In this document: positions 930 through 38,361 of the stretch, one piece after another
Position numbering within the stretch: position 1 is the stretch's first letter
Layout of the letters: every line of letters starts with the position of its first letter
Origin: Planctomycetota bacterium
GTDB taxonomy: Bacteria; Planctomycetota; Phycisphaerae; Phycisphaerales; UBA5793
Assembly (NCBI GenBank): GCA_963205185.1
Contig: CAUJHZ010000018.1
Location: 123,408 to 187,407, forward strand
Reading direction: 5' to 3'
Length of the DNA: 64,000 bases
Program-made: the position numbers and the translations under genes
The notes under the pieces: model-generated
Told to the model about the DNA's origin: nothing
The model's input: only the letters and a program-made list of their open reading frames with translations
Database searches by the model: none

Positions 930-3446
930 ATGGGGACCAAGGTAGTATGGATGCGGGCGCGTTTTCTTTCCGTTGGCCTGCTCCTGCCGCTCGCCGGCGC
1001 CTTCGGCTGGGCTGCAGACGGCGTCGAAACGACGATCGGTGATCAGCGTGTGGCGGCGATAGCCATCGAAGTTCCCGGGTCCGAGGCGGTTGTTCGACTC
1101 TGGGACGAGATCGACGAGTCGGGGAGTCGCACGCCGTTCTATTCCATCAGCCTCGATGGCAAGGCCGAGAACCTGCGCCGTCCGGTCGCGCCGAATATCC
1201 GCCTGCTCTACGGCTCCTTTGACCCGCTCGTCGCCGAGCCGCAGGTGCCCGAAGCGCTTCGTGCGGCGCCCGACAGCACCCTCTACCTGGTTCAGTTTCA
1301 GACGCAGATGATCGACGCGTACCGCGCGGCCATGGCCGACGCGGGCGCATCGCTGCTCAAGTTCGTGGCCGACCAGTCCTTCGTCGTGGAGATGCCTGGC
1401 GAAGTGGCGGAGGCGGTCAAGGAGATGCCGTTTGTCCGATGGGTCGGGGCGATGCACCCGGCATACAAGACGGACCCGGCCCTGCTCGCGGATCTCTTTC
1501 CGCCCGACTATGCGCACGCAGGCGGTGCTGCCGGAGATCAGGATGGTCAGGACGGAGCGGGAGTGCTCGGTGTCGAAGCGGGCCAGGCGGACGGCGTCGA
1601 ATACAGCATCATGATGACGCGGCGCGGCCCCGTGCCGCAGAACGCCGTCGCGCAGCGCATCGCCGCGATGGGCGGCGTCGTGCACCAGCAGATTCCCGAG
1701 GGCTTTCGCATCCTCGCCACGCTGACGCCGAGCCAGGTCGCCTCGGTGCTTCGCATGGACGAAGTGCTCTTCATGGATGTCCCTGGCGAGAAGGGTCTGG
1801 ACATGGACATCGCCCGCGAGATCGGCGGCGCAAACATGGTCCGCGACACGCTCGGCTTCACCGGCCAGGGTGTGCGCTGTGAAGTCATGGATGACGGCCA
1901 GCGGAGCAGCCACCAGGATTTCCAGGATCCGCCCACACTCTGGCACGGGTCTTCCGGAAGCGGCAGCCACGGCACATCGACCTCGGGAATCGTCTACGGA
2001 TCAGGCCGCGGCAACGCGCAGGCGACGGGCATGCTTCCCGACGCCGAGGCCAAGATCATGGCGCTGTGGAGCCCTTCGCCGAATCGCTATGTCCACACTC
2101 AACGGCTGGTGGATCCGAACGGCCCGTACCGAGCCGTGTTCCAGAGCAATTCCTGGGGCGACGCCCGCACCCGGTTGTACACGACCGTCTCTGCCGAGAT
2201 GGATGATCTCCTTTTCGAGAACGACATTCTGATCTGCCAGTCGCAGAGCAACGCGGGCAACCAGGATTCCCGCCCGCAGGCGTGGGCGAAGAACATCGTT
2301 TCCGTCGGCGGCGTGTACCACCGCAACACGCTCACCAAGGACGACGACGACTGGGGCGGCGGCGGGAGCATCGGCCCGGCGGCGGACGGCCGCATCAAGC
2401 CCGATCTCACGCACTTCTACGACAACATCTTCACGGTCTCGTCGAGTTGCGATACGTGCTACACCTCGTCGTTCGGCGGTACGAGCGGCGCCACGCCGAT
2501 CACGGCCGGGCACTTCGGCCTCATGTTCCAGATGTGGCATGAAGGAGTGTTCCCGGGGTTCGGCGGCGGCAACACGGTATTCGAAGACCGGCCGGCAATG
2601 GCGACCGCCAAGGCGCTCATGATCAACACCGCCATGCAGTATGAATTCAGCGGCACGAATCATGACCATTCGCGCGTCAAGCAGGGATGGGGCATGGCGG
2701 ACCTGTTCTACCTGTACGATCACGCCAATCGCATGCTCATCGTCAACCAGGATGTGCAGTTGCAGGAAACGCAGTCGCAGAGTTACCAGGTCGATGTGAG
2801 TCCCGGCTCGCCGGCGCTGAAGGTGACCATGGTCTTCCCCGACCCGATGGGCAATCCCGCGGCACAGCAGGCGCGCATCAACGACCTCTCGCTAAAGGTC
2901 ACCGCGCCCGACAACACCGAGTACTGGGGCAACAACAACATGCTCGGCAATATGTTCACCTCCCCGGGCGGAAGCGCCAACACCGTTGACACGGTCGAGA
3001 ACGTCTTCGTCGAATTGCCCATGGCCGGCACGTGGACGATCGAAGTGATCGCCTCCGAGATCAACGAAGACGGCTACCTCCCGACGCCGCAGGTTGATGC
3101 GACGTACGCCCTCGTCGCCTCGGGCATCGGCGAGATCCCGATGCGGCTGCAACTGTCGCGCTGGGTGGCGGGCGTGCAGGGCGACGCCGAGGTCTTCGCC
3201 GCGACGCCGGGTGAAGTGGTCGCGTTCCTGTACAGCGTCGGCGGCACCGGAAGCACCTACATCCCGCAACTGGACGTGACGGTGGACCTCGCCAACCCGG
3301 CTCTGGCTGGCACGCGCACGGCCGACCAGAACGGCTATGCACTGCTGCGCAAGCGCATCCCGAATGGAACACAGGGGCGGCACGTCTGGGTGCAGGCGGC
3401 TGAATTCCAGCGCAAGTCCAATGTCGTTGAGCAGGACATCGAATGA
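930..3446 (+). CDS. Secreted S8 (subtilisin/kexin-like) serine peptidase with P-domain-like region and C-terminal module, paralog 1
   Basis: 838-aa ORF with ATG preceded by GGGAG and a signal-peptide-like N-terminus. Catalytic motifs EVMDDG (Asp), GSHGTSTSG (His), FGGTSGATP (Ser). Kexin P-domain-like block INDLSLKVTAPDNTEYWGNN...GTWTIEVIASE. Confidence 0.9.
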   Translation: MGTKVVWMRARFLSVGLLLPLAGAFGWAADGVETTIGDQRVAAIAIEVPGSEAVVRLWDEIDESGSRTPFYSISLDGKAENLRRPVAPNIRLLYGSFDPLVAEPQVPEALRAAPDSTLYLVQFQTQMIDAYRAAMADAGASLLKFVADQSFVVEMPGEVAEAVKEMPFVRWVGAMHPAYKTDPALLADLFPPDYAHAGGAAGDQDGQDGAGVLGVEAGQADGVEYSIMMTRRGPVPQNAVAQRIAAMGGVVHQQIPEGFRILATLTPSQVASVLRMDEVLFMDVPGEKGLDMDIAREIGGANMVRDTLGFTGQGVRCEVMDDGQRSSHQDFQDPPTLWHGSSGSGSHGTSTSGIVYGSGRGNAQATGMLPDAEAKIMALWSPSPNRYVHTQRLVDPNGPYRAVFQSNSWGDARTRLYTTVSAEMDDLLFENDILICQSQSNAGNQDSRPQAWAKNIVSVGGVYHRNTLTKDDDDWGGGGSIGPAADGRIKPDLTHFYDNIFTVSSSCDTCYTSSFGGTSGATPITAGHFGLMFQMWHEGVFPGFGGGNTVFEDRPAMATAKALMINTAMQYEFSGTNHDHSRVKQGWGMADLFYLYDHANRMLIVNQDVQLQETQSQSYQVDVSPGSPALKVTMVFPDPMGNPAAQQARINDLSLKVTAPDNTEYWGNNNMLGNMFTSPGGSANTVDTVENVFVELPMAGTWTIEVIASEINEDGYLPTPQVDATYALVASGIGEIPMRLQLSRWVAGVQGDAEVFAATPGEVVAFLYSVGGTGSTYIPQLDVTVDLANPALAGTRTADQNGYALLRKRIPNGTQGRHVWVQAAEFQRKSNVVEQDIE
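3141..3443 (+). other. Recurrent C-terminal domain copy 1 (Cys-free type)
   Basis: Last 101 aa, MRLQLSRW...VVAFLYS...VDL...ADQNGYA...VWVQA...KSNVVEQDIE. Aligns with seven other C-termini in this window. Confidence 0.6.
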
Positions 3447-6547: not shown

Positions 6548-7567
6548 TCAGGACGTGCGGGAGATGACCGCCAGCGCCAGGTCGTCGAGCAGTTGCCGGG
6601 CGGGCGACTCGGGGGCGGCGCTCAATTGCCCGCGAGCCTCTTCGACCAGTCCCGCGGCGACGCGGTGGGCGGAATCGACCGCCCGACTGGCCAGCAGCAG
6701 CGAGCGCACCCGCGCGGTCCAGTCGCCCTCGCGAGCCTCCGCGAGCGCTTCGAGCATGGCGAGTCGATCGTCCGGGGCGGCGGCGTCGAAGAAGTGGATC
6801 ATTGGCAGGGTGAGTTTGCCCTTCTCGAGGTCGCGGCCGAGCGATTTTCCGACGATGCGCTCTTCCCCTATGAGATCGAGCAGGTCATCCTGGATCTGAA
6901 AGGCCACGCCCAGCCGGCTGCCATAGAGCGCCAGCGCCTCGGACAGAGTCGCGTCGGCGCCGGCCTCCTCGGCGCCGAGCCGGCAGCACAGGCTGATGAG
7001 CGAAGCGGTCTTGCGCTCGACGATGGCGAAGTAGGTCGCCTCGTCGATCGACCAGTCGTCGCGGTGGTGGACCTGAAGCAACTCGCCGGAACAGAGTTCG
7101 TTCGTCGTTTCGCCGATGCGGCGACTGATTTCGGGCCGGTCCAGCGTCGAGCAGAGGTGAAAAGCGTTGGAGATGAGATAATCGCCAAGCAGAACGGCCA
7201 TCTCGTTGCCGCGCAGGTGGTTGACGGTCGCGGCGCTGCGGCGCATCTGCGAGTCGTCGAGCACATCGTCGTGCACGAGCGTCGCCATGTGGATAATTTC
7301 GCTCACTGCGGCGAGGACGCGCACGGTGTGCCGCGGCACGAGGTGGCCCGCCGAGGCTTCGCTGCCGCCGGCCAGGCCGCAGAGCAGGGTCAGGGTCGGG
7401 CGCAGCATCTTGCCCTGATAACGGGCGACGTGCCGGCAAAGTTCATTGACTGCTGGCAGGTCGCTGGCCAGTTGCCTACGGATGATCTCGTTGACGGCCT
7501 GCAGTTCGCCCGAGAGGAATTCGTGAATGGGTCGGTACCGCTGGGTGTGCTCGATCAATCCCGGCAT
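6548..7567 (-). CDS. Polyprenyl diphosphate synthase (trans-isoprenyl, IspB-like)
   Basis: Two Asp-rich motifs, LVHDDVLDD and FQIQDDLLD. GGAGG lies 7 nt upstream of the ATG at 7567 (alternative ATG at 7615). The ORF-track extension to 8311 overlaps the next gene and has no family similarity. Confidence 0.88.
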   Translation of the reverse strand: MPGLIEHTQRYRPIHEFLSGELQAVNEIIRRQLASDLPAVNELCRHVARYQGKMLRPTLTLLCGLAGGSEASAGHLVPRHTVRVLAAVSEIIHMATLVHDDVLDDSQMRRSAATVNHLRGNEMAVLLGDYLISNAFHLCSTLDRPEISRRIGETTNELCSGELLQVHHRDDWSIDEATYFAIVERKTASLISLCCRLGAEEAGADATLSEALALYGSRLGVAFQIQDDLLDLIGEERIVGKSLGRDLEKGKLTLPMIHFFDAAAPDDRLAMLEALAEAREGDWTARVRSLLLASRAVDSAHRVAAGLVEEARGQLSAAPESPARQLLDDLALAVISRTS

Positions 7568-22559: not shown

Positions 22560-23878
22560 GCGCTCTTGACACGCAAACACCTCCCGCCGAATTGAACGAG
22601 CCGCCAAGCGATGCAATCGACTCGTGGCTCGCCGTGCTCGTGCGCCTGCTCGACGTGTCGGGCCGGCAGCGCGACGCGATTCGCGATGAAATCGAAGCCC
22701 ACCTGCGCGAGCGCGTGCGCGATCTGATGATCGCCGGTCGCGGCGAGGCAGACGCCATCCGCATCGCCATCAGCGAACTGGGTGAAGTGGCCGACCTGGC
22801 CCGACGATTCAGCCATGCTTCCAGATCACGAACCAGGAGAATCATCATGAATGCAGCAGTGCTCGGCTTTGGCGCCATCGGCGTCGCAACCGCGACGGTT
22901 TTCATTGGCGGGCCGCAGCCCGGTCCTTCGCGCCTGTCCGTCTTCGAGTCCGCCGCGCCGCCTGATGCCACAGCCATACTCGACGACAAGACCGCCAAGG
23001 TGGATTTCGAGAGTCAGACGCTCGTGGATGTGCTGGGCTATCTGAGCGCCAGCGCCGGACTCGATCTCGTGCTCGATCGGCACGCGCTCGAAGATCACGG
23101 CGTGGACCTGCAGGAGGAAATCACCCTTACGCTGAGCAAGTCCCAGCCTGTGTCAAGTATCCTCAAGATCGTCTCCGAACACGCCCGCGAGCCGTTTGCC
23201 TGGCGCGTTTCGGGTCCGATGCTCGAGGTTTCGACAGAGGATGAATTTGATCGCAGAGAAATCGTGCTCGCATCGTTCGACGTGCAGGCGATTCTCGATC
23301 TCATCTGGCAGACCACGGAAGACATGGACGAGGCGGCGGCGCGGCTCGAGTCGCTCGTCATCGAATACGTTCAGCCCGATTCCTGGTACACCAACGGCGG
23401 CGATCTGGCCAACCTGCAGATCGTCGGCGGAAAGATGTTCGTCAAAGCGCCATCGCGCTTCCACCGGCCGATCGAGTGGATTCTCGGGCAACTCGAAGAG
23501 AACGCAACCGAGCAGGCGGCGATGCCCACCGGCGCCGGGCTCATCTACTCCGACGCTCCGAGCCGGTACTACCGCCTGGGCCAACCCTCGGGCGGTGGAG
23601 GCGGAGCGGCGCCTTCAACGTGGTCGCCGCTCGCGCCCGGCGCCGCCCAGACACCCTCAGCGCCGGGCGGCGGCGCAGGCGCCAGCGGTTTTTCAGGCGG
23701 GAGCGGAGTCTCTGCCGGCTCGCCGCCCAGCGCGGCCGGACAACCCGTGTCGCCCTCGCCTGGAATGGGCAGCGGCCCTCAGAGCGCGCCCGCAATGCCG
23801 CCAGGCCAGCCGGGATCTACTCCGGCCCCGGTCGCTGAGCCTGAGCAGCCGCAGCCGCAAACCGGCGGCGGCGGCTGA
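22556..23878 (+). CDS. Membrane-anchored signalling-type protein: N-terminal helical domain, one TM, periplasmic STN-like domain, Pro/Gly/Ser-rich tail
   Basis: GTG 22556 overlaps the PadR stop (GTGA) and has GAGGAGG 8 nt upstream. N-terminal helical block DSWLAVLVRLL...RDEIEAHLRERVRDLM.AG. TM segment AAVLGFGAIGVATATVFIGG. The last ~100 aa are low complexity (P/G/S/A). Confidence 0.75.
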   Translation: MSALDTQTPPAELNEPPSDAIDSWLAVLVRLLDVSGRQRDAIRDEIEAHLRERVRDLMIAGRGEADAIRIAISELGEVADLARRFSHASRSRTRRIIMNAAVLGFGAIGVATATVFIGGPQPGPSRLSVFESAAPPDATAILDDKTAKVDFESQTLVDVLGYLSASAGLDLVLDRHALEDHGVDLQEEITLTLSKSQPVSSILKIVSEHAREPFAWRVSGPMLEVSTEDEFDRREIVLASFDVQAILDLIWQTTEDMDEAAARLESLVIEYVQPDSWYTNGGDLANLQIVGGKMFVKAPSRFHRPIEWILGQLEENATEQAAMPTGAGLIYSDAPSRYYRLGQPSGGGGGAAPSTWSPLAPGAAQTPSAPGGGAGASGFSGGSGVSAGSPPSAAGQPVSPSPGMGSGPQSAPAMPPGQPGSTPAPVAEPEQPQPQTGGGG

Positions 23879-26743: not shown

Positions 26744-26796
26744 TCCCGTCGGCGCCGCCGAGCCTCGCCGCGTGATTCGAGTGAAAGGGAGTATTG

Positions 26797-27447
26797 ATGA
26801 ACGCACAAACGGGCATCATGGATCGGCTGCGCAGCGGCACCTCCGAACTGCACCGGCAGGCCGAGTCGCGGCCGCTGCAGAAGCAGCTCGGCGCGGGCAC
26901 CCTGCCGCGCGCTGCGCTGGCCGCTTACATGGGCCAGTTGCTGCTGGTCCATGACTGTCTCGAATCCTGCCTCGATGCGCAACTCCACCGCGACGGCCAC
27001 GAGGCGTTCGCCGTCGCCTGGCAGTCACTGGCCCGGCATTCGGAGAACCTTCGGGAAGACCTCGTTGCGCACGGGCTCGAGCCGCACGCCGTGGCCCCGC
27101 TGCCGGCCACCTCGGCGGTGCTCGATCAACTCGGACGGTGGAGCGACGCCGGCGACCTGGCGCTCATCGGCGCGTTGTACGTCCTCGAAGGCAGCATGAA
27201 CGGCAATCGCTTCATCGCCAAGGCGCTCCAGCGCGCGTGGGGCGTGGACACAGCGGCTGGTTTGTCGTATCTCGATCCCTACGGCGAAGAGCAGCGGCCG
27301 ACCTGGGCCGCGTTTCGCAGCCGCGTCAACGCCGTTTCGTTTACCGAGGACGAAGCGTCGGCGATTCTCGCGGGAGCCGATCGGATGTTCCAGGCCATCG
27401 GCGAGATCAGCGACGAGCAGAATGAACTGCTGCGCGATGGCGAGTGA
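26797..27447 (+). CDS. Heme oxygenase-like (biliverdin-producing family) protein
   Basis: AAAGGGA lies 6 nt upstream of ATG 26797 (TTG 26794 in the ORF track). N-terminal LRSGTSELHRQAE with the proximal-His context, and LYVLEGSMNG block typical of the family. Confidence 0.72.
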   Translation: MNAQTGIMDRLRSGTSELHRQAESRPLQKQLGAGTLPRAALAAYMGQLLLVHDCLESCLDAQLHRDGHEAFAVAWQSLARHSENLREDLVAHGLEPHAVAPLPATSAVLDQLGRWSDAGDLALIGALYVLEGSMNGNRFIAKALQRAWGVDTAAGLSYLDPYGEEQRPTWAAFRSRVNAVSFTEDEASAILAGADRMFQAIGEISDEQNELLRDGE

Positions 27448-27470: not shown

Positions 27471-28382
27471 TCAGTTGGACGATCCATCCCCTGGCGATGC
27501 GCCCGCGTCTGACGTGACGGCGCCGCGGGCGAACGCGACCAGTTCAGACATCGATGTGCCGACGAAGGCGCGCAGTCGAAGCGCCGTGCGGAATTGCCGC
27601 GCGCAGCGACCGCCGATGACGAACCTTACGCCGCGCTTGGCGAGCTGGGTGTCGAGCGCTTCCAGAGCGCCTGCGAATTCGTTCGGATTGGAAGGCGGCA
27701 TCGAGATGCTCAGCCACGCGATCCGCGATCGGTACTCCGTCACGCCCGACTCGATGGCTGCGAGCGGCGTGTCGGGCCCGAGGTTGACCGCCTTGAAATG
27801 TTCTGACTCCAGTACGATGGCTGCCGCAAGGGAAGGGATGACGTAGATGTCGCCGGATGGCGCCGCGCCCACGGCCGCGGGAGCATCGGCCTTCGGCTCA
27901 GGCAGGATTGATCGAACCTGGTTCAACGCGTGGATGCAGATGTCCGTGGCGCGATGCTCGATGTACACGCCTCGTTCCGAGTGGCGCCACAGTTCACCCA
28001 GTTGATGCATGGCCGGGGCGATCCACCGGTCGCAGATCTCAGCAACCGATGAACCCTGGAGGTAGACGGAGAGGATCAGTCCGCGGGCCAGGGCGGACTC
28101 CCCGCGGCTGAGCAGGTCGAACAGCCGCTCGGAATCCGGAAGGGTCGGCCCGCCGGCGCCAATGACCTCACCAGAGATTTCCGGCAAGCCCAAGGCGACC
28201 GCATCAGCCACATGGAGATGCTGGTCGCGAATGAAGCGAATCGCCTCGGCGCGGGCAATGCGCCGGTGTCCGCCCGCCGTTCGGGCCACGGCCAGCAGAC
28301 CGTCATCGGCCCACCGTTTGATGGATGATTCGCTGACGCCGACGGCGTGGGCGAGGTCGCGCGGGGACAAACTCGAACTCAT
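27471..28382 (-). CDS. HTH (MerR/excisionase-type) regulator with B12-binding-like C-terminal domain (CarH/LitR-like architecture)
   Basis: ATG 28382 (MSSSLSPRDLAHAVGVSESSIKRWADDGLL...). C-terminal Rossmann-like block SGDIYVIPSLAAAIVLESEHFKAVNLGPDTP...WLSISM...GGR. The ORF-track extension to 28724 covers the AT-rich control region. Confidence 0.8.
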   Translation of the reverse strand: MSSSLSPRDLAHAVGVSESSIKRWADDGLLAVARTAGGHRRIARAEAIRFIRDQHLHVADAVALGLPEISGEVIGAGGPTLPDSERLFDLLSRGESALARGLILSVYLQGSSVAEICDRWIAPAMHQLGELWRHSERGVYIEHRATDICIHALNQVRSILPEPKADAPAAVGAAPSGDIYVIPSLAAAIVLESEHFKAVNLGPDTPLAAIESGVTEYRSRIAWLSISMPPSNPNEFAGALEALDTQLAKRGVRFVIGGRCARQFRTALRLRAFVGTSMSELVAFARGAVTSDAGASPGDGSSN

Positions 28383-28570
28383 TGATGACTCCGGTGGTCG
28401 ATTTGAATGATTATACCACGGCGAAGAGGGGTATTCCAAAGCCCTGTCCCCAGGCTGATCGGCTGATTCGAGCCGCAACCACTTGAAAACATGGCGATTA
28501 CGCTGGCCAAAGCCCGGGGTCCTCAGTGCGTGCGAGCATCCCGGTGCCGATAATTCGGCGCCGGATTCAG

Positions 28571-28598
28571 TTGACATGTACGAATTGAGCGATATTCT
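28571..28598 (+). promoter_or_regulatory. Candidate promoter of the fasciclin gene
   Basis: Consensus TTGACA (28571-28576), 16-nt spacer, TATTCT (28593-28598), in the most AT-rich patch of the window. Confidence 0.45.
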
Positions 28599-28599
28599 T

Positions 28600-28635
28600 T
28601 GAACGATATGAACGAATTGAACGTATATTCGTTCA
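28600..28635. promoter_or_regulatory. Operator-like array of four contiguous 9-bp units
   Basis: TGAACGATA (28600-28608), TGAACGAAT (28609-28617), TGAACGTAT (28618-28626), then the inverted copy ATTCGTTCA (28627-28635). Units 2 and 4 form a perfect 10-bp inverted repeat ATGAACGAAT/ATTCGTTCAT. A degenerate copy, GTACGAATTGAGCGATATTC, lies inside the promoter spacer. Confidence 0.5.
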
Positions 28636-28696
28636 TTCCCCGGCGTTGTGTTTGGGGATTCCAGTTCATCTCCGCACCATTCAGAAGGATTGACCA

Positions 28697-29674
28697 ATGG
28701 CTCAGAATCTGTTCCGCTCCACACTCGCAGGCGGCCTTCTCGCCGGCCTGGCTCTTTCTGCGTTCGGTTTCACCAGTGCCCCGATGGCCGCGGGATCTTT
28801 CCGCTCGATTGCCCCCGCAACGATTTCTTCGCCGCCTTCCACGGCTTCCGCGAAAGACATCGTCGACACCGCGGTGGGCGCCGGCCAGTTCAACACTCTC
28901 GTCGCGGCGCTGAAGGCAGCCGACCTTGTTGATGCCCTGCGAGGCGATGGTCCGTTCACCGTGTTTGCGCCCACCGATGATGCATTCGCCAAACTCCCCA
29001 AGGGAACCCTCGAGAGTCTTCTCAAGCCGGAGAATGCAGGTCAGCTCAAGGGGATCCTTCTTTACCACGTCGTGCCCGGGCGATACGTCGCGCGTGACGT
29101 GATGCGCTCGACCACTGCCAGGACGCTGAATGGCCAGCGGCTGGCGTTTGAAGTGAGCGCGGGATCCGTCAAGGTGGATGGCGCAACTGTCGTTGCAGCG
29201 AACATTGAGTGCGCCAATGGCGTGATTCACGTCATTGACACGGTCGTTCTACCGCAAAGCGCAACGATCGTCGAGGTGGCGCAGAAGGCGGGCACGTTCA
29301 ACACGCTGTTGGCGGCGGCCAAGGCGGCGGGGCTGGTCGAAACGCTCAGCGGCAAGGGGCCGTTCACGATTCTGGCGCCGACGGACGCGGCGTTCGCCAA
29401 GCTGCCCACGGGCACCGTGGAGAGCCTGCTCCAGCCGGAGAACCGCGATCAACTCGCTGAAATCCTGAAGTACCACGTCATCTCAGGGCGCGTGTCGGCG
29501 CGCGATGCAATCACGGCCAACATGGCCAAGACGTTGCAGGGTCAGCAGGTGATCTTTGATCTGCGCGATGGTCAATTGCTGGTGGATGGCGTACGGGTCA
29601 TCGCGACGGACATCGATGCGAGCAACGGCGTGGTGCATGTCATCGACTCGGTTCTGCTTCCCGCGGAGATGTGA
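28697..29674 (+). CDS. Secreted fasciclin (2 x FAS1) domain protein
   Basis: Signal peptide present. Two FAS1 repeats ([28 protein letters not shown]...[17 protein letters not shown] and [27 protein letters not shown]...[17 protein letters not shown]). Confidence 0.9.
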
Positions 29675-29773
29675 TTGGTTTGGCCTACGGGGAGGGGGAG
29701 CCCGTCCCACTGGAGATCGTCTCCTCCCACGGCGCGGCTCTCCCTCCCATCTTCAAAGTCAGGGACACTTCAA

Positions 29774-31063
29774 ATGCACACTCGATTTCGAACACTCCGG
29801 CGGCTGGCGGCGATGGCGCTCGCCGCAGTCGGAAGCGGCGGCGCCGTACTGGCGCAGGGTTCGCCCGCCGACTCATTGACAACCAAGAGCGGCTGGAACC
29901 AGTGGCGGGGTCCGAATCGGGATGGGGTTCTTGACGGTCCAGCCTGGCCCGAGCATCTCAATGCCGACACACTGACTCTGATGTGGCGCGTCGAGAATCT
30001 CGGTCCGTCCTATGCCGGGCCGGTCGTCAGTGGCGCGGCGGTGTTTACGGCGGAGACCAGCGAGTCGCGAGTGGAGATCGTACGTGCGTTCGACCGGGCG
30101 ACCGGCGCTCCACTGTGGCAATCGCAGTGGGAGGGCGCCATGACGGTGCCGTTCTTTGCAGCCAAGAACGGCTCGTGGGTGCGTTCGACCCCGACGTGCG
30201 ATGGACCGCGCCTCTACGTCGCGGGCATGCGTGATGTACTGGTGTGCCTCGATGCCGCGTCGGGTGATGTGATATGGAACGTCGACTTCGTCGAGCGGTT
30301 CGGCTCTCCCCTGCCCGCATTCGGTTTTGTGAGTTCGCCCCTCGTGACGGCGGACCATGTGTACGTGCAGGCGGGCGCCGGCTTTGTCAAACTCGACAAA
30401 CGAAGTGGAGACACCGTGTGGCGCGTGCTCGTTGACGACGGGGGCATGAACGGAAGTGCGTTCTCCTCACCCACGCTCGCAACGCTTGCCGGTCGGCAGC
30501 AACTGCTCGTGCAGACTCGCACCGAACTGTGCGGCGTGTCACCGGACAGCGGGGACGTGCTGTGGCGCCGGCCGATCAAGACGTTTCGTGGAATGAATAT
30601 TCTCACGCCGGTGCTCTTCGACCAGCGCATCTTCACATCGTCCTACGGTGGACGCTCGGTGCTGCTCGATCTTGCGGCCGACGAGAGCGGCAAGCTGGCG
30701 GCGAGGCAGGTGTGGGATTCTGCGGTGCAGGGGTACATGACCTCGCCAATCGTGATCGAGAGTTGCGCCTATCTCTTTACGCGCAGCAATCGTTTCACCT
30801 GCATTGATTTGACGACCGGGGAGGTGAAGTGGACCTCCGGACCAACCGGAGACGAGTACTGGTCGCTTGTTGCACAGGGCAAGCGAATACTCGCGCTGGC
30901 CAACACGGGAATGCTGCGGCTGATTGAGGCAGACCCCGAGGCGTACCGCGTGGTTGACGAGTTTGAAATCCCCGATGCGCCGAGCTGGGCGCATCTCGCC
31001 GTCGATGGGGATGAGGTGATCATTCGCGGGCTTCGCTCGCTGGCGAGTTTTCGCTGGCGCTAG
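29774..31063 (+). CDS. Secreted PQQ-like / BamB-like beta-propeller repeat protein
   Basis: ATG 29774 gives signal peptide MHTRFRTLRRLAAMALAAVGSGGAVLAQ. WNQWRGPNRDGV motif and repeated propeller blades. Confidence 0.85.
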   Translation: MHTRFRTLRRLAAMALAAVGSGGAVLAQGSPADSLTTKSGWNQWRGPNRDGVLDGPAWPEHLNADTLTLMWRVENLGPSYAGPVVSGAAVFTAETSESRVEIVRAFDRATGAPLWQSQWEGAMTVPFFAAKNGSWVRSTPTCDGPRLYVAGMRDVLVCLDAASGDVIWNVDFVERFGSPLPAFGFVSSPLVTADHVYVQAGAGFVKLDKRSGDTVWRVLVDDGGMNGSAFSSPTLATLAGRQQLLVQTRTELCGVSPDSGDVLWRRPIKTFRGMNILTPVLFDQRIFTSSYGGRSVLLDLAADESGKLAARQVWDSAVQGYMTSPIVIESCAYLFTRSNRFTCIDLTTGEVKWTSGPTGDEYWSLVAQGKRILALANTGMLRLIEADPEAYRVVDEFEIPDAPSWAHLAVDGDEVIIRGLRSLASFRWR

Positions 31064-36609: not shown

Positions 36610-38361
36610 TCAGTTGCGAGCCGGCTGGTCCAGCGCGAGGTCGCTCGGCACGCCGAGGTATTCGAGGCAGCGATTCATGACCTGCGCCGCGACCGGGCCG
36701 CAGATGGCGCCGCCGAAGTGGCCCAGGCTCTTGTCGGGATCTTCGACGATGCAGAGCACGACCAGTCGCGGATTGTCGAGCGGGGCTCCGGCGATGAAAC
36801 TGATGACGTAGCGATCCTTGTAGTAGCCGCCGCCATTGGGCTTGGGCAGTTCAGCCGTGCCCGACTTGCCGAACATGCGGTAGTGCGCCACCTCATTGGC
36901 CTTGCGGCCGCTGCCGTCGGTCATCACTTTGCGCATGGTGCGGCGTGCGGTGAGGGCCGTGGATTCGAGCATCGGCTGCTGTGTGACGTAGGGCGTGATG
37001 GGCACGTTCTCGGCCGCGACGACGAACTGAATCGGCGGCATCGATCCATCGCGGCAGAACGCCGAAAAGGCGCGGACCATCTGCAGCGGGCTCACCGCGA
37101 TCTCGTGACCCATTGCGACGCTCGTCTGCGTGTACTTCGACCAATCGCCCGGCGAGGTGACCAATCCGGCTGTCTCGGCGGGCAGGCCGCCGCCGGTGGG
37201 CCGGCCGAAGCCGAAGTCGCTGACGCACTGCTGCAACTGCCGGTGCGTCAGGCGCATGGCGACCTGGGCCATGCCGATGTTGCTCGACTTGATCATCACG
37301 CCTTCCCACGAGAGTTCAGAGTAGGGATAGGCGTCGTGGATGACGCGGCCGAAGTCGGTGCGGTAGACTCCGTTGTGCGTGTTGAAGACTTCATCGAGTT
37401 CGACGAGACCCAACTCCGTCGCGCGGGCCCAGACGAACGACTTGAACGTTGAACCCGGTTCGTAAGGGTCGGTGAGGCAGCGCATGCGGCCCATGCTCAG
37501 ATCCTCTTTGCGCAGCGGATCTTCGGTGAACGGGCCGTAGCCGGGACGATCGCGGAGAATGTCCGTGATGGCCAGGATTTCGCCGCTGTGGGGATCAAAC
37601 ACGACGGCCCGGCCGCCCGCGGCGTTGACAGACTCGACGCCGGCGCGGATTTCCTCTTCCGCGATCCGCTGCATCTCGACGTCGATCGTCAGGCGCACCG
37701 CATGGCCGTCGCTGGCCGGCTCGTGGCCGTCCGCGTCCACCCACATCGCCCGCCGCCGCACGTCGCGCAGGTAGCGCAGCCTGCCGGGCGCGCCGGAAAG
37801 CGTGTCGTTGAAGATCGCTTCGGTGCCCGTCAGGCCGATGTGGCCCGTTCCGACTTTGCCGATGAGCGGCGCTGCAAGGTCGCCGTACGGCCGGTGGCGG
37901 ACGAGCACTGGTTCGAGGCCCACGCCCTTGAGATTCGCCGTCTCAATCGCCTCCACTTCCGCCTCGGTGAGCAGGTCGATGAGCACGGCATAGCGCTTGT
38001 CAAGCCGCTCGTTCACTTTGGCGTCCAGCGCCACCGGGTCGCGGCCGAGCAGTTGCGCGATGTCGATGCCGATGGTGTAGGGGTCGTTGACTTCCTGAGG
38101 ATCGACAAACAGCCGATAGCCGACGCAACTCGTGGCCAGCACGCGGCCGCGCCGGTCGAGCACATCGCCGCGGTTGGCCATCTCCGGCCGGATTGAACTC
38201 GTCGGCGGCGCGTGGTGCACGAGATTGCTGCTGGGCAGCATCTGCAATTGCGTGACCCGGCCCAATACTCCGGCGAACGCGAGGGTGAGGCAGGCGAGCA
38301 GCAGATTGAGCGCCAGGCCGAAGCGCCGCTGCTGCGTGTCGTGCACGTGATTCGTTGACAT
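36610..38361 (-). CDS. ftsI: Penicillin-binding protein 2/3 class (FtsI-like transpeptidase)
   Basis: N-terminal TM anchor and PBP dimerisation region. Transpeptidase motifs STFK (PGSTFKSF), SSN (KSSNIG), KSG (GKSGTA). ATG 38361. Confidence 0.9.
   Translation of the reverse strand: MSTNHVHDTQQRRFGLALNLLLACLTLAFAGVLGRVTQLQMLPSSNLVHHAPPTSSIRPEMANRGDVLDRRGRVLATSCVGYRLFVDPQEVNDPYTIGIDIAQLLGRDPVALDAKVNERLDKRYAVLIDLLTEAEVEAIETANLKGVGLEPVLVRHRPYGDLAAPLIGKVGTGHIGLTGTEAIFNDTLSGAPGRLRYLRDVRRRAMWVDADGHEPASDGHAVRLTIDVEMQRIAEEEIRAGVESVNAAGGRAVVFDPHSGEILAITDILRDRPGYGPFTEDPLRKEDLSMGRMRCLTDPYEPGSTFKSFVWARATELGLVELDEVFNTHNGVYRTDFGRVIHDAYPYSELSWEGVMIKSSNIGMAQVAMRLTHRQLQQCVSDFGFGRPTGGGLPAETAGLVTSPGDWSKYTQTSVAMGHEIAVSPLQMVRAFSAFCRDGSMPPIQFVVAAENVPITPYVTQQPMLESTALTARRTMRKVMTDGSGRKANEVAHYRMFGKSGTAELPKPNGGGYYKDRYVISFIAGAPLDNPRLVVLCIVEDPDKSLGHFGGAICGPVAAQVMNRCLEYLGVPSDLALDQPARN

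Follow-up and report, generated by a model that had tools for sequence, protein, structure and literature searches.

A candidate BldC-type operator of contiguous 9-bp repeats between a CarH-like regulator gene and a fasciclin gene in a planctomycetote genome

The regulator–fasciclin promoter region

In a 64,000-nucleotide stretch of DNA from a Planctomycetota bacterium (GenBank assembly GCA_963205185.1, contig CAUJHZ010000018.1, positions 123,408 to 187,407 of the forward strand; hereafter the window), the gene for a MerR-like regulator with a B12-binding-type domain is divergent from a gene for a fasciclin protein, and the control region between the two contains a promoter followed by an array of 9-bp repeat units (Table 1). 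Comparison with related loci suggests that this array is very probably the operator of the adjacent regulator, whose DNA-binding head resembles BldC of Streptomyces venezuelae and whose remaining domains resemble those of the B12 photoreceptor CarH. A preliminary description of the region had placed here a consensus promoter and, directly after it, three direct units and one inverted unit, and on re-reading of the sequence all positions were right. It had also called the region the most AT-rich patch of the window, which base composition bears out—against a mean GC of 0.648, the lowest-GC 60-bp segment starts at 28579 (GC 0.33) and the lowest-GC 100-bp segment at 28565 (GC 0.41).

Table 1. Features of the regulator–fasciclin locus, with positions counted from the first letter of the window
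Feature	Position	Strand	Basis
Heme oxygenase gene	26794-27447	+	Tail-to-tail with the regulator gene, 23 nt between open reading frame (ORF) ends
Regulator gene, 303 aa	27471-28382	-	Pfam MerR/HTH_17 and B12-binding_2
Proximal two-unit site, TGGTCGATT TGAATGATT	28395-28412	+	Third-best tandem pair of the window, score 23.3
Regulator promoter: TTGGAA, 18 nt, extended -10 TGgTATAAT	28410-28439	-	Promoter scan 10/12; TG before the -10; -10 kept in orthologues
-35 of the fasciclin promoter, TTGACA	28571-28576	+	Promoter scan 10/12, 16-nt spacer
Degenerate unit d1, TGTACGAAT, in the promoter spacer	28577-28585	+	Matrix score 8.2; counterpart TGAGCGAAT in locus L002
Degenerate unit d2, TGAGCGATA, overlapping the start of the -10	28586-28594	+	Matrix score 10.3; identical in locus L002
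-10 of the fasciclin promoter, TATTCT	28593-28598	+	Promoter scan; TAnnnT kept in four orthologous loci
Unit U1, TGAACGATA, direct	28600-28608	+	Matrix score 14.4; GAACGAT invariant in four orthologues
Unit U2, TGAACGAAT, direct	28609-28617	+	Matrix score 13.2; TGAAYG kept in four orthologues
Unit U3, TGAACGTAT, direct	28618-28626	+	Matrix score 12.5; part of the period-9 repeat found by Tandem Repeats Finder
Unit U4, ATTCGTTCA, inverted TGAACGAAT	28627-28635	-	TCGTYC kept in orthologues
Fasciclin gene, two-domain protein	28697-29674	+	Pfam Fasciclin, E 3.9e-80; ribosome-binding site GAAGGA at 28684-28689
PQQ_2/BamB-like beta-propeller gene	29675-31063	+	Pfam; abuts the fasciclin stop codon

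The four units U1 to U4 are contiguous, with zero spacing across 28600-28635, and the last two together form the palindrome TGAACG-TATATT-CGTTCA. Tandem Repeats Finder returned a period of 9 with 3.1 copies (28600-28628), and a repeat search recovered a perfect inverted pair (28608-17/28627-36) and an abutting pair (28618-26/28627-35). The hexamer TGAACG occurs four times inside 36 bp, a count that none of 300 simulated windows (first-order Markov) attained, the highest being three, seen once; TGAACGNAT is found six times in the 64 kb against 1.5 expected, three of the six in the array and the others as isolated units at 23365, 45008 and 56764, with no other array in the window. When tandem pairs were scored with the unit matrix of the regulator's family, the top four of the 64 kb all fell in the regulator–fasciclin intergenic region. 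The best pair outside it, CGAACGACT TGAACGTTG (37434-37451, score 16.5), lies inside a 619-codon minus-strand ORF and is probably a chance match.

A single degenerate fifth copy had been described in the promoter spacer. Repeat-like sequence is indeed present there, but it consists of two contiguous degenerate units (28577-28594), which the sequence TTCTT separates from the main array. The array of the window attains the top score among all arrays examined in the family, and transcription of the fasciclin gene would start near 28605, within U1. Directly 3' of the array, in the predicted 5' leader, lies a GC-rich hairpin (CCCCGG..N8..TTGGGG, 28637-28658) that recurs at the same place in loci L002 and L003 with other stem sequences and more weakly in L005; an Rfam search of 28300-28800 at E<=1 gave no match, and so assigned the hairpin to no known RNA family.

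The intergenic region holds a second, proximal site of two units, 13-30 bp upstream of the regulator start codon and absent from the preliminary description. Across four orthologues TG..CGATT TG..TGAT is invariant while the N positions vary, which is the pattern expected for a protein-binding motif, and a site at equal offset recurs in many relatives as well as in CtMerR, the closest relative of solved structure. Because it overlaps the -10 and the leader of the regulator gene, the proximal pair is presumably an autoregulatory site.

On the other side, the beta-propeller gene is probably co-transcribed with the fasciclin gene, since it abuts the fasciclin stop codon, and this gene order is shared with L001/L002 and L005. 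The closest relatives, which are Phycisphaerales metagenome-assembled genomes, retain the order fasciclin, regulator, heme oxygenase; linkage to heme oxygenase is kept in the three closest orthologous loci (L002, L003 and L005) and gone at 51% identity (L006 and L007). A heme oxygenase gene beside the regulator gene may point to some link with bilins or heme, of the kind known from photocobilins.

Linkage of the array to the regulator gene

We collected relatives of the regulator from species-representative genomes, which yielded at least 509 loci, of which 80 were kept (38-51% identity; the window's own species is not among them) from Planctomycetota, Acidobacteriota, Myxococcota, Rhodothermia, Binatia, Eisenbacteria, Opitutales and other groups. 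When the intergenic regions of four orthologous loci, whose regulators share 58-100% identity, are aligned, conservation is concentrated in the array and the two promoters, and the sequence around them has diverged. In 64 of 82 loci, against 1.7 expected, a 36-bp array matrix, refined on the related loci and then run over the whole of each (~8.8 kb, both strands), had its best match on the strand opposite the regulator gene and no more than 300 bp upstream of it. Since such a matrix is circular, the linkage test was repeated with a naive regular expression made from the units of the window only, TGNNCGNNNTGNNCG, which gave 70 matches in the upstream zone against 5.6 expected and hit 49 of 79 distant loci. 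Likewise, strong pairs numbered 53 in the upstream zone, which makes up 1.9% of positions, and 11 elsewhere. Comparative genomics thus agrees with the earlier proposal that the array has a regulatory role connected with the regulator next to it.

Most of the strong pairs found elsewhere belong to the regulator's own promoter or to further divergent promoter pairs (of fasciclin, SDR and SRPBCC-epimerase-DUF1731 genes). Second divergent promoter pairs with an array on each side were seen in L066 (~6690-6800), L079 (~6780-6880 and 2975-3135) and L084 (~6815-6925), followed by genes for fasciclin proteins, SDRs, SRPBCC-epimerase-DUF1731 fusions and a 250-aa protein without a Pfam match; these genes are likely to be further members of the regulon.

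The family unit has the consensus TGAACGATT, and a two-site layout is recurrent—one or two proximal units 10-30 bp before the regulator start, and a distal array 80-250 bp away. Among 50 distal arrays, 30 have two direct units, 16 have three and four have four or five. Eight of the 16 three-unit arrays are followed by an inverted unit (P ~2e-20, given a background frequency of 0.001 for 9-mers that reach the threshold), so that the terminal inverted unit, previously singled out as a distinctive variant, is real and recurrent but not universal, two direct units being the commonest form. In four Myxococcota loci (L049, L052, L059 and L060), an extra unit and an inverted unit (for example TGAACGTTT and then TAACGTTCA) come straight after the -35 TTGACA; this extra pair lies upstream of the usual direct array, and its counterpart place in the window is occupied by the two direct degenerate units.

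A sigma-70-type promoter of the form TTGACA-N16-18-TAnnnT precedes 41 of the 50 arrays, and in 26 of these 41 the -10 ends between -1 and +2 nt from the first strong unit. Because the -10 abuts that unit, the arrays cover the transcription start, and the position over the -10 and +1 that had been proposed for the fasciclin promoter is the usual geometry of the family. The period-9 arrays of the relatives similarly fit the suggestion that head-to-tail units suit a multimer. Looping between the proximal and distal sites was considered from helical phasing and set aside, as distances of ~110-209 bp, inspected by eye, had no common phase.

The first genes after the distal arrays are more diverse. 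Across 43 loci they encode fasciclin proteins (11), GTP cyclohydrolase I (7), ECF sigma factors (7), NAD-epimerase/NmrA/DUF2867 proteins (5-8) and SDRs (3); fasciclin is thus the commonest first gene among these distant loci and occurs in every close orthologue. As the first downstream genes differ among loci, the constant partner of the array is the regulator. Two of the recurrent genes have precedent as targets of LitR-type light regulators, folE (PMC9758184) and ECF sigma factor genes (PMC11519972).

A different protein encoded elsewhere, such as a stand-alone member of the BldC family, might instead bind the units, leaving the neighbouring regulator a bystander. BldC homologues are said to be widespread (PMC5859096), and the consensus pair occurs at many metagenome sites without the regulator. 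We nonetheless regard this alternative as highly improbable—across phyla, no neighbour of promoter-abutting arrays other than the regulator gene is constant, the -10 of the regulator gene is itself covered by a copy of the array, and all proteins found with the TGAACG motif, CtMerR included, carry the recognition helix VSESSxKRW unchanged. Given this invariance, the recognition helix offers no covariation with the bases of the unit within the family, and the contrast with BldC is the only informative one.

Metagenomes were scanned with the consensus pair TGAACGWTTTGRACGWTT, with the aim of finding regulon members, and at least 120 stretches were returned. Among the stretches listed, 13 had the regulator nearby and 63 had at least 1.2 kb of upstream sequence without it. 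Many were satellites of three to seven 9-bp units (..GAACGGCT TGAACGTTT TGAACGATT GGAACG..) built on TGAACGNNT or GGAACGNNT (L091-L210; for example L174 from ~1080, L109 from ~7325, L184, L104 and L125), with no promoter at the expected place, no adjacent regulator and, often, a GC-rich hairpin such as CCTCCCCCGCGACGCGGGGGAGG before them. By our own rough estimate, ~100 chance matches would arise per ~1e12 positions, and some of the listed stretches are possibly of this kind. The genes beside the satellites were heterogeneous, with 80 Pfam families among 94 ORFs, and the scan therefore did not define a regulon.

These satellites bear on whether the array could be a generic short tandem repeat with no regulatory role, a reading that the preliminary description would have drawn from the same array at many unrelated sites lacking promoters. 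Promoter-less repeats of three to seven TGAACGNNT-type units with mixed neighbours do exist in metagenomes, but none was found in the window or around the 82 regulator loci. Moreover, orthologous arrays keep their motif positions while the flanks diverge, the position of the array is fixed relative to the -10, the window holds no other array, and the recurrence of an inverted fourth unit is far beyond chance, all of which make a generic repeat barely credible here. The existence of satellites does imply that the motif alone is not diagnostic; what is specific is an array abutting a -10 beside the regulator gene.

The DNA-binding head and the sensor domain

The regulator consists of a BldC-like MerR/HTH_17 winged helix, a linker, a CarH-like four-helix bundle and a Rossmann B12-binding-type domain. 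The 9-bp period had been taken for a variant of the CarH operator, a view that the comparison contradicts. CarH operators comprise three or four tandem direct repeats over promoter elements, bound by a tetramer or two dimers (PMC9304148), and their repeats are 11 bp long (nnnnTnnACAn; PMC9304148), against 9 bp in the array of the window. On both strands of the intergenic region, the sole TnnACA is the -35 itself, and there is no 11-bp pair. The 9-bp period is instead a hallmark of the BldC-type winged helix, and we attribute it to a DNA-binding domain that resembles BldC more than CarH: residues 1-62 retrieved CtMerR (8jbs, 1.9e-7) and BldC (6ama/6amk, ~6e-5) from the PDB, where the CarH DNA-binding domain was not retrieved at E<=1, and residues 5-47 matched the NCBIfam model HTH_BldC (E 5e-9, 35.8 bits, cut-off 77).

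BldC binds 9-bp direct repeats of variable number as head-to-tail multimers; its Arg30 reads the TpG step, Trp31 kinks the backbone, and the wing, through His46, Arg47 and Arg48, inserts into a minor groove that is AT-rich and narrowed (PMC5859096). These five residues correspond to R23, W24, H39, R40 and R41 of the regulator and are invariant in 31 family members. The BldC site at whiI, TG-TGTCCGAAT-TGCTCGGAT-TG, matches TGAACGAAT-TGAACGTAT in register and in its TG..CG..AT skeleton, and the family matrix gives it positive scores at these two offsets, which are 9 bp apart, and at no others. Lys26 of BldC is Ser19 in the regulator, a substitution that may account for the different central bases (TC/CT for BldC and AA here). 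We also compared the head-to-tail interface of BldC (Phe21, Val23 and Trp31 against Leu11, Ile40, Thr42, Leu43 and Gly44, and the Arg22-Glu16 contact): W24, T35 and G37 are invariant in the regulator's family, positions 14 and 16 are hydrophobic, and the counterpart of Arg22 is Gly15. By analogy, the regulator would probably bind its units head-to-tail in the manner of BldC (6AMA/6AMK), with which it shares a MerR-like winged helix and 9-bp direct repeats of variable number with TG..CG..AT units. Unlike the regulator, BldC is a stand-alone domain of 68 residues without a sensor or oligomerisation domain, no terminal inverted unit has been described for it, and it controls development rather than a divergent promoter pair.

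The closest solved relative, CtMerR of Chloracidobacterium thermophilum (8JBS/8JBT), has an HTH_17-type head with the recognition helix VSESSVKRW and is a tetrameric, adenosylcobalamin-binding protein responsive to green light (PMC11796333). The words 'operator' and 'direct repeat' do not occur in the main text of that paper (PMC11796333). We compared its locus with those of three relatives (49-89% identity). The C. thermophilum B locus has TGAACGTTT TGAACGTTT as its best tandem pair, on the strand opposite the gene and 27-44 bp upstream of the GTG start, and this pair is conserved in the relatives; all four loci also retain a further pair, TGACCGNTT TGNGCGTTT, which overlaps the -35 (TTGACC) of a promoter at a distance of 150-190 bp. 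CtMerR thus carries the same motif, which argues for one operator type in both the light-responsive branch with the cobalt-ligating His, to which it belongs, and the branch with Tyr in that place, to which the regulator belongs. The divergent genes differ, encoding a hypothetical protein and a polyprenyl synthase and not fasciclin.

Two further observations concern the CtMerR locus itself. The annotated TTG start of the gene in C. thermophilum B is apparently 48 nt too far upstream (L211, 3001-3048): the crystallised construct matches the GTG at 3049, and the annotated 5' end holds TGAACGTTT TGAACGTTT. The genes for the hypothetical protein and polyprenyl synthase are separated from the operator-bearing promoter by a long leader, and this leader contains a conserved element of ~80 nt, cttggaacgacgactccggggggagttttcaagtct..tgacgcttggggggtt (L211, ~2660-2740, minus strand; likewise placed in L212-L214). 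A search of Rfam at the gathering score gave no match to the element, which may be a so far unrecognised RNA.

Beyond the head, the regulator shares domain order, fold and the Wx9EH motif with CarH and other class I LitR proteins (TtCarH, BmCarH and myxobacterial CarH). As a full-length query against the PDB it retrieved CtMerR first (8jbs, E 1.6e-22 over residues 6-259) and then TtCarH (5c8d). Its AlphaFold2 model (mean predicted local distance difference test score, pLDDT, 91.2; predicted template modelling score 0.88), with lower pLDDT around residues 71-80 of the ~30-residue linker, found TtCarH (5c8f/5c8e/5c8d) and the B12-binding domain of CtMerR (8jbs_B, template modelling score 0.80, root-mean-square deviation 2.5 A) as top Foldseek matches. 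The Wx9EH motif, which in CarH proteins caps the adenosyl group, is present (WRHSERGVYIEH), with E142 and H143 invariant and W132 nearly so in the 31 relatives. The published light-sensor signature comprises GxxW, EH, GxxH and GxxxP (PMC11796333), of which the regulator has GELW, EH and GPDTP, while its GxxH position reads GDIY. The segment GDIYVIP aligns without gaps with GERHEIG of TtCarH and GDLHEIA of CtMerR, so that the lower-axial, cobalt-ligating His (motif E/DxHxxG; H177 in TtCarH, H204 in CtMerR) is replaced by Tyr180 (codon near 27843-27845); CtMerR differs from the regulator in keeping it. An earlier assignment of the regulator as a CarH-type B12 photoregulator therefore stands as regards fold and Wx9EH and is in doubt as regards the ligand. 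The NCBIfam CarH equivalog NF052513 gives it 46.3 bits against a cut-off of 400.

In a B12-binding domain with Arg substituted at this position, only hydroxocobalamin was bound and no light response was seen (PMC11796333), and together with the Tyr this precedent leaves the light/B12 step weak. We accordingly treat light acting through a corrinoid as a tentative, nearly evenly balanced proposal for the signal. A lesser but serious possibility is that the operator is as described and the signal is not light on adenosylcobalamin but another corrinoid mode, another tetrapyrrole, or none at this site, the C-terminal part serving only as an oligomerisation module with release by a partner, as with CarA and CarS. 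CarA of Myxococcus xanthus, a CarH paralogue that represses without B12 (PMC9304148), is a precedent for a light-blind CarH-like repressor; it differs from the design in the window in its inverted repeats, bound cooperatively by two dimers, and in its release by the antirepressor CarS. The Tyr, its prevalence among relatives and the light independence of the Arg-substituted domain (PMC11796333) favour such a signal, as does the heme oxygenase gene tail-to-tail with the regulator gene in the window and the three closest orthologous loci, although this linkage is lost at 51% identity. On the other hand, three of the four signature elements (GxxW, EH and GxxxP) are kept and Wx9EH is nearly invariant, three relatives inside the family bear the His, one or more of them together with the array, and folE and ECF sigma factor targets fit light regulons.

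Class II LitR proteins (Pseudomonas PplR and PmlR), which are MerR-type regulators of the light response, offer a further comparison. Like the regulator in the window, they have several sites from ~-50 to +35 of sigma-70-type promoters (PMC9758184), and folE is among the light-induced targets of PplR/PmlR (PMC9758184). Unlike it, they recognise TGTACA-N12-TGTACA, have only the four-helix bundle without the Rossmann B12 domain and rely on a LOV partner to sense light; no TGTACA site was found on either strand of the intergenic region.

A proposed mode of control and its meaning for the family

What we observe at these loci is the anatomy and conservation of the array, its linkage to the regulator gene, the promoter geometry, the folds and the contact residues. 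From these we infer binding, its stoichiometry, the direction of control and the nature of the signal as follows. One BldC-like winged helix would occupy each 9-bp unit (TGAACGATT), with Arg23 reading the TpG step and the wing His39-Arg40-Arg41 entering the AT-rich minor groove at the unit end, by analogy with BldC, and head-to-tail packing of neighbouring winged helices would set the 9-bp period. The CarH/CtMerR-like C-terminal domain would hold protomers as a dimer or tetramer and so make binding by the multimer cooperative: U1 to U4, three direct and one inverted, could engage all four heads of a tetramer, with the flexible linker of ~30 residues letting one head bind inverted, and d1 and d2 could take a further pair. 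The oligomer would then cover the promoter from the spacer to ~+30 and block RNA polymerase at the fasciclin/beta-propeller operon, and the two-unit site over the regulator's -10 would give autorepression. When the C-terminal domain senses its signal—possibly light on a bound corrinoid, as in CarH and CtMerR—the oligomer would dissolve or rearrange and both promoters would be derepressed. Taken whole, from operator and head-to-tail binding to repression and release by a signal, we consider this the likely account of the locus as judged from sequence comparison.

Repression is the direction that the position of the array makes probable. We also considered that the site might serve activation or both functions, the bound multimer bending the DNA and so helping or remodelling the promoter; BldC itself both represses and activates, and the two units between -35 and -10 lie where classical MerR activators act. 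A bend of ~50 degrees per dimer has been reported for BldC (PMC5859096). Classical MerR activators, however, bind as coiled-coil dimers to a palindrome in an over-long spacer of 19-20 bp, whereas the spacer in the window is 16 bp, the direct repeats lie mostly downstream of the -10 and the AlphaFold2 model shows no coiled coil after the winged helix. With a spacer of 16-17 bp and near-consensus hexamers, no activator would be needed; the strongest units extend over the -10 to ~+30, the usual position of a repressor, and the CarH and LitR relatives are repressors. Activation or a dual function is thus improbable.

Several points weigh against the account of a repressing, signal-released, BldC-type multimer. 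Among 61 classifiable loci, the ligand position is Tyr in 58 and His in three (at least 90% Tyr in the 31 aligned relatives). With the NCBIfam models CarH and HTH_BldC the regulator scores under the curated threshold in both cases, and the BldC head-to-tail interface appears to be kept only in part, with Gly in place of the Arg of the Arg22-Glu16 salt bridge. The array matrix was trained and scored on the same loci, a circularity that the untrained regular expression limits without removing, and the bare consensus pair also occurs in metagenomes far from any regulator. Lastly, because BldC can repress or activate, the direction of control is taken from position only.

Our literature search found no paper linking BldC-type binding with CarH or B12-domain regulators, and a search by motif (TGAACGATT and similar) found primers and unrelated sites only. 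As far as we found, a CarH-like regulator with what appears to be a BldC-type operator, recurring in several phyla, is therefore apparently undescribed. The operators of B12 photoreceptors have so far been described only as 11-bp repeats, and BldC was presented as the sole MerR-like protein that acts on direct repeats through its winged helix alone; a BldC-type head joined to a CarH-type sensor would explain the presence of a 9-bp operator in Planctomycetota, Acidobacteriota, Myxococcota and other phyla.

A broader generalisation, which we hold to be rather doubtful, is that the relatives (at least 509 loci) form one large, uncharacterised, cross-phylum class of CarH-like proteins that combine BldC-type filament binding on 9-bp arrays with a B12-type sensor carrying Tyr in place of His. 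Were this so, the class would use a new mode of cobalamin binding or photochemistry or another ligand, for which a tetrapyrrole is a candidate given the heme oxygenase neighbour, and secreted fasciclin proteins, folE, ECF sigma factors and NmrA/SRPBCC-epimerase proteins would form the core of its regulon. The majority subgroup without the His ligand would be missed by the published light-sensor signature. Fasciclin-domain proteins, in turn, would be a recurrent output of such regulators, so far without explanation. The 9-bp motif also gives CtMerR-like proteins, of interest for optogenetic switching with green light, a concrete DNA target that can be tested, and may be usable for predicting regulons in uncultured bacteria.

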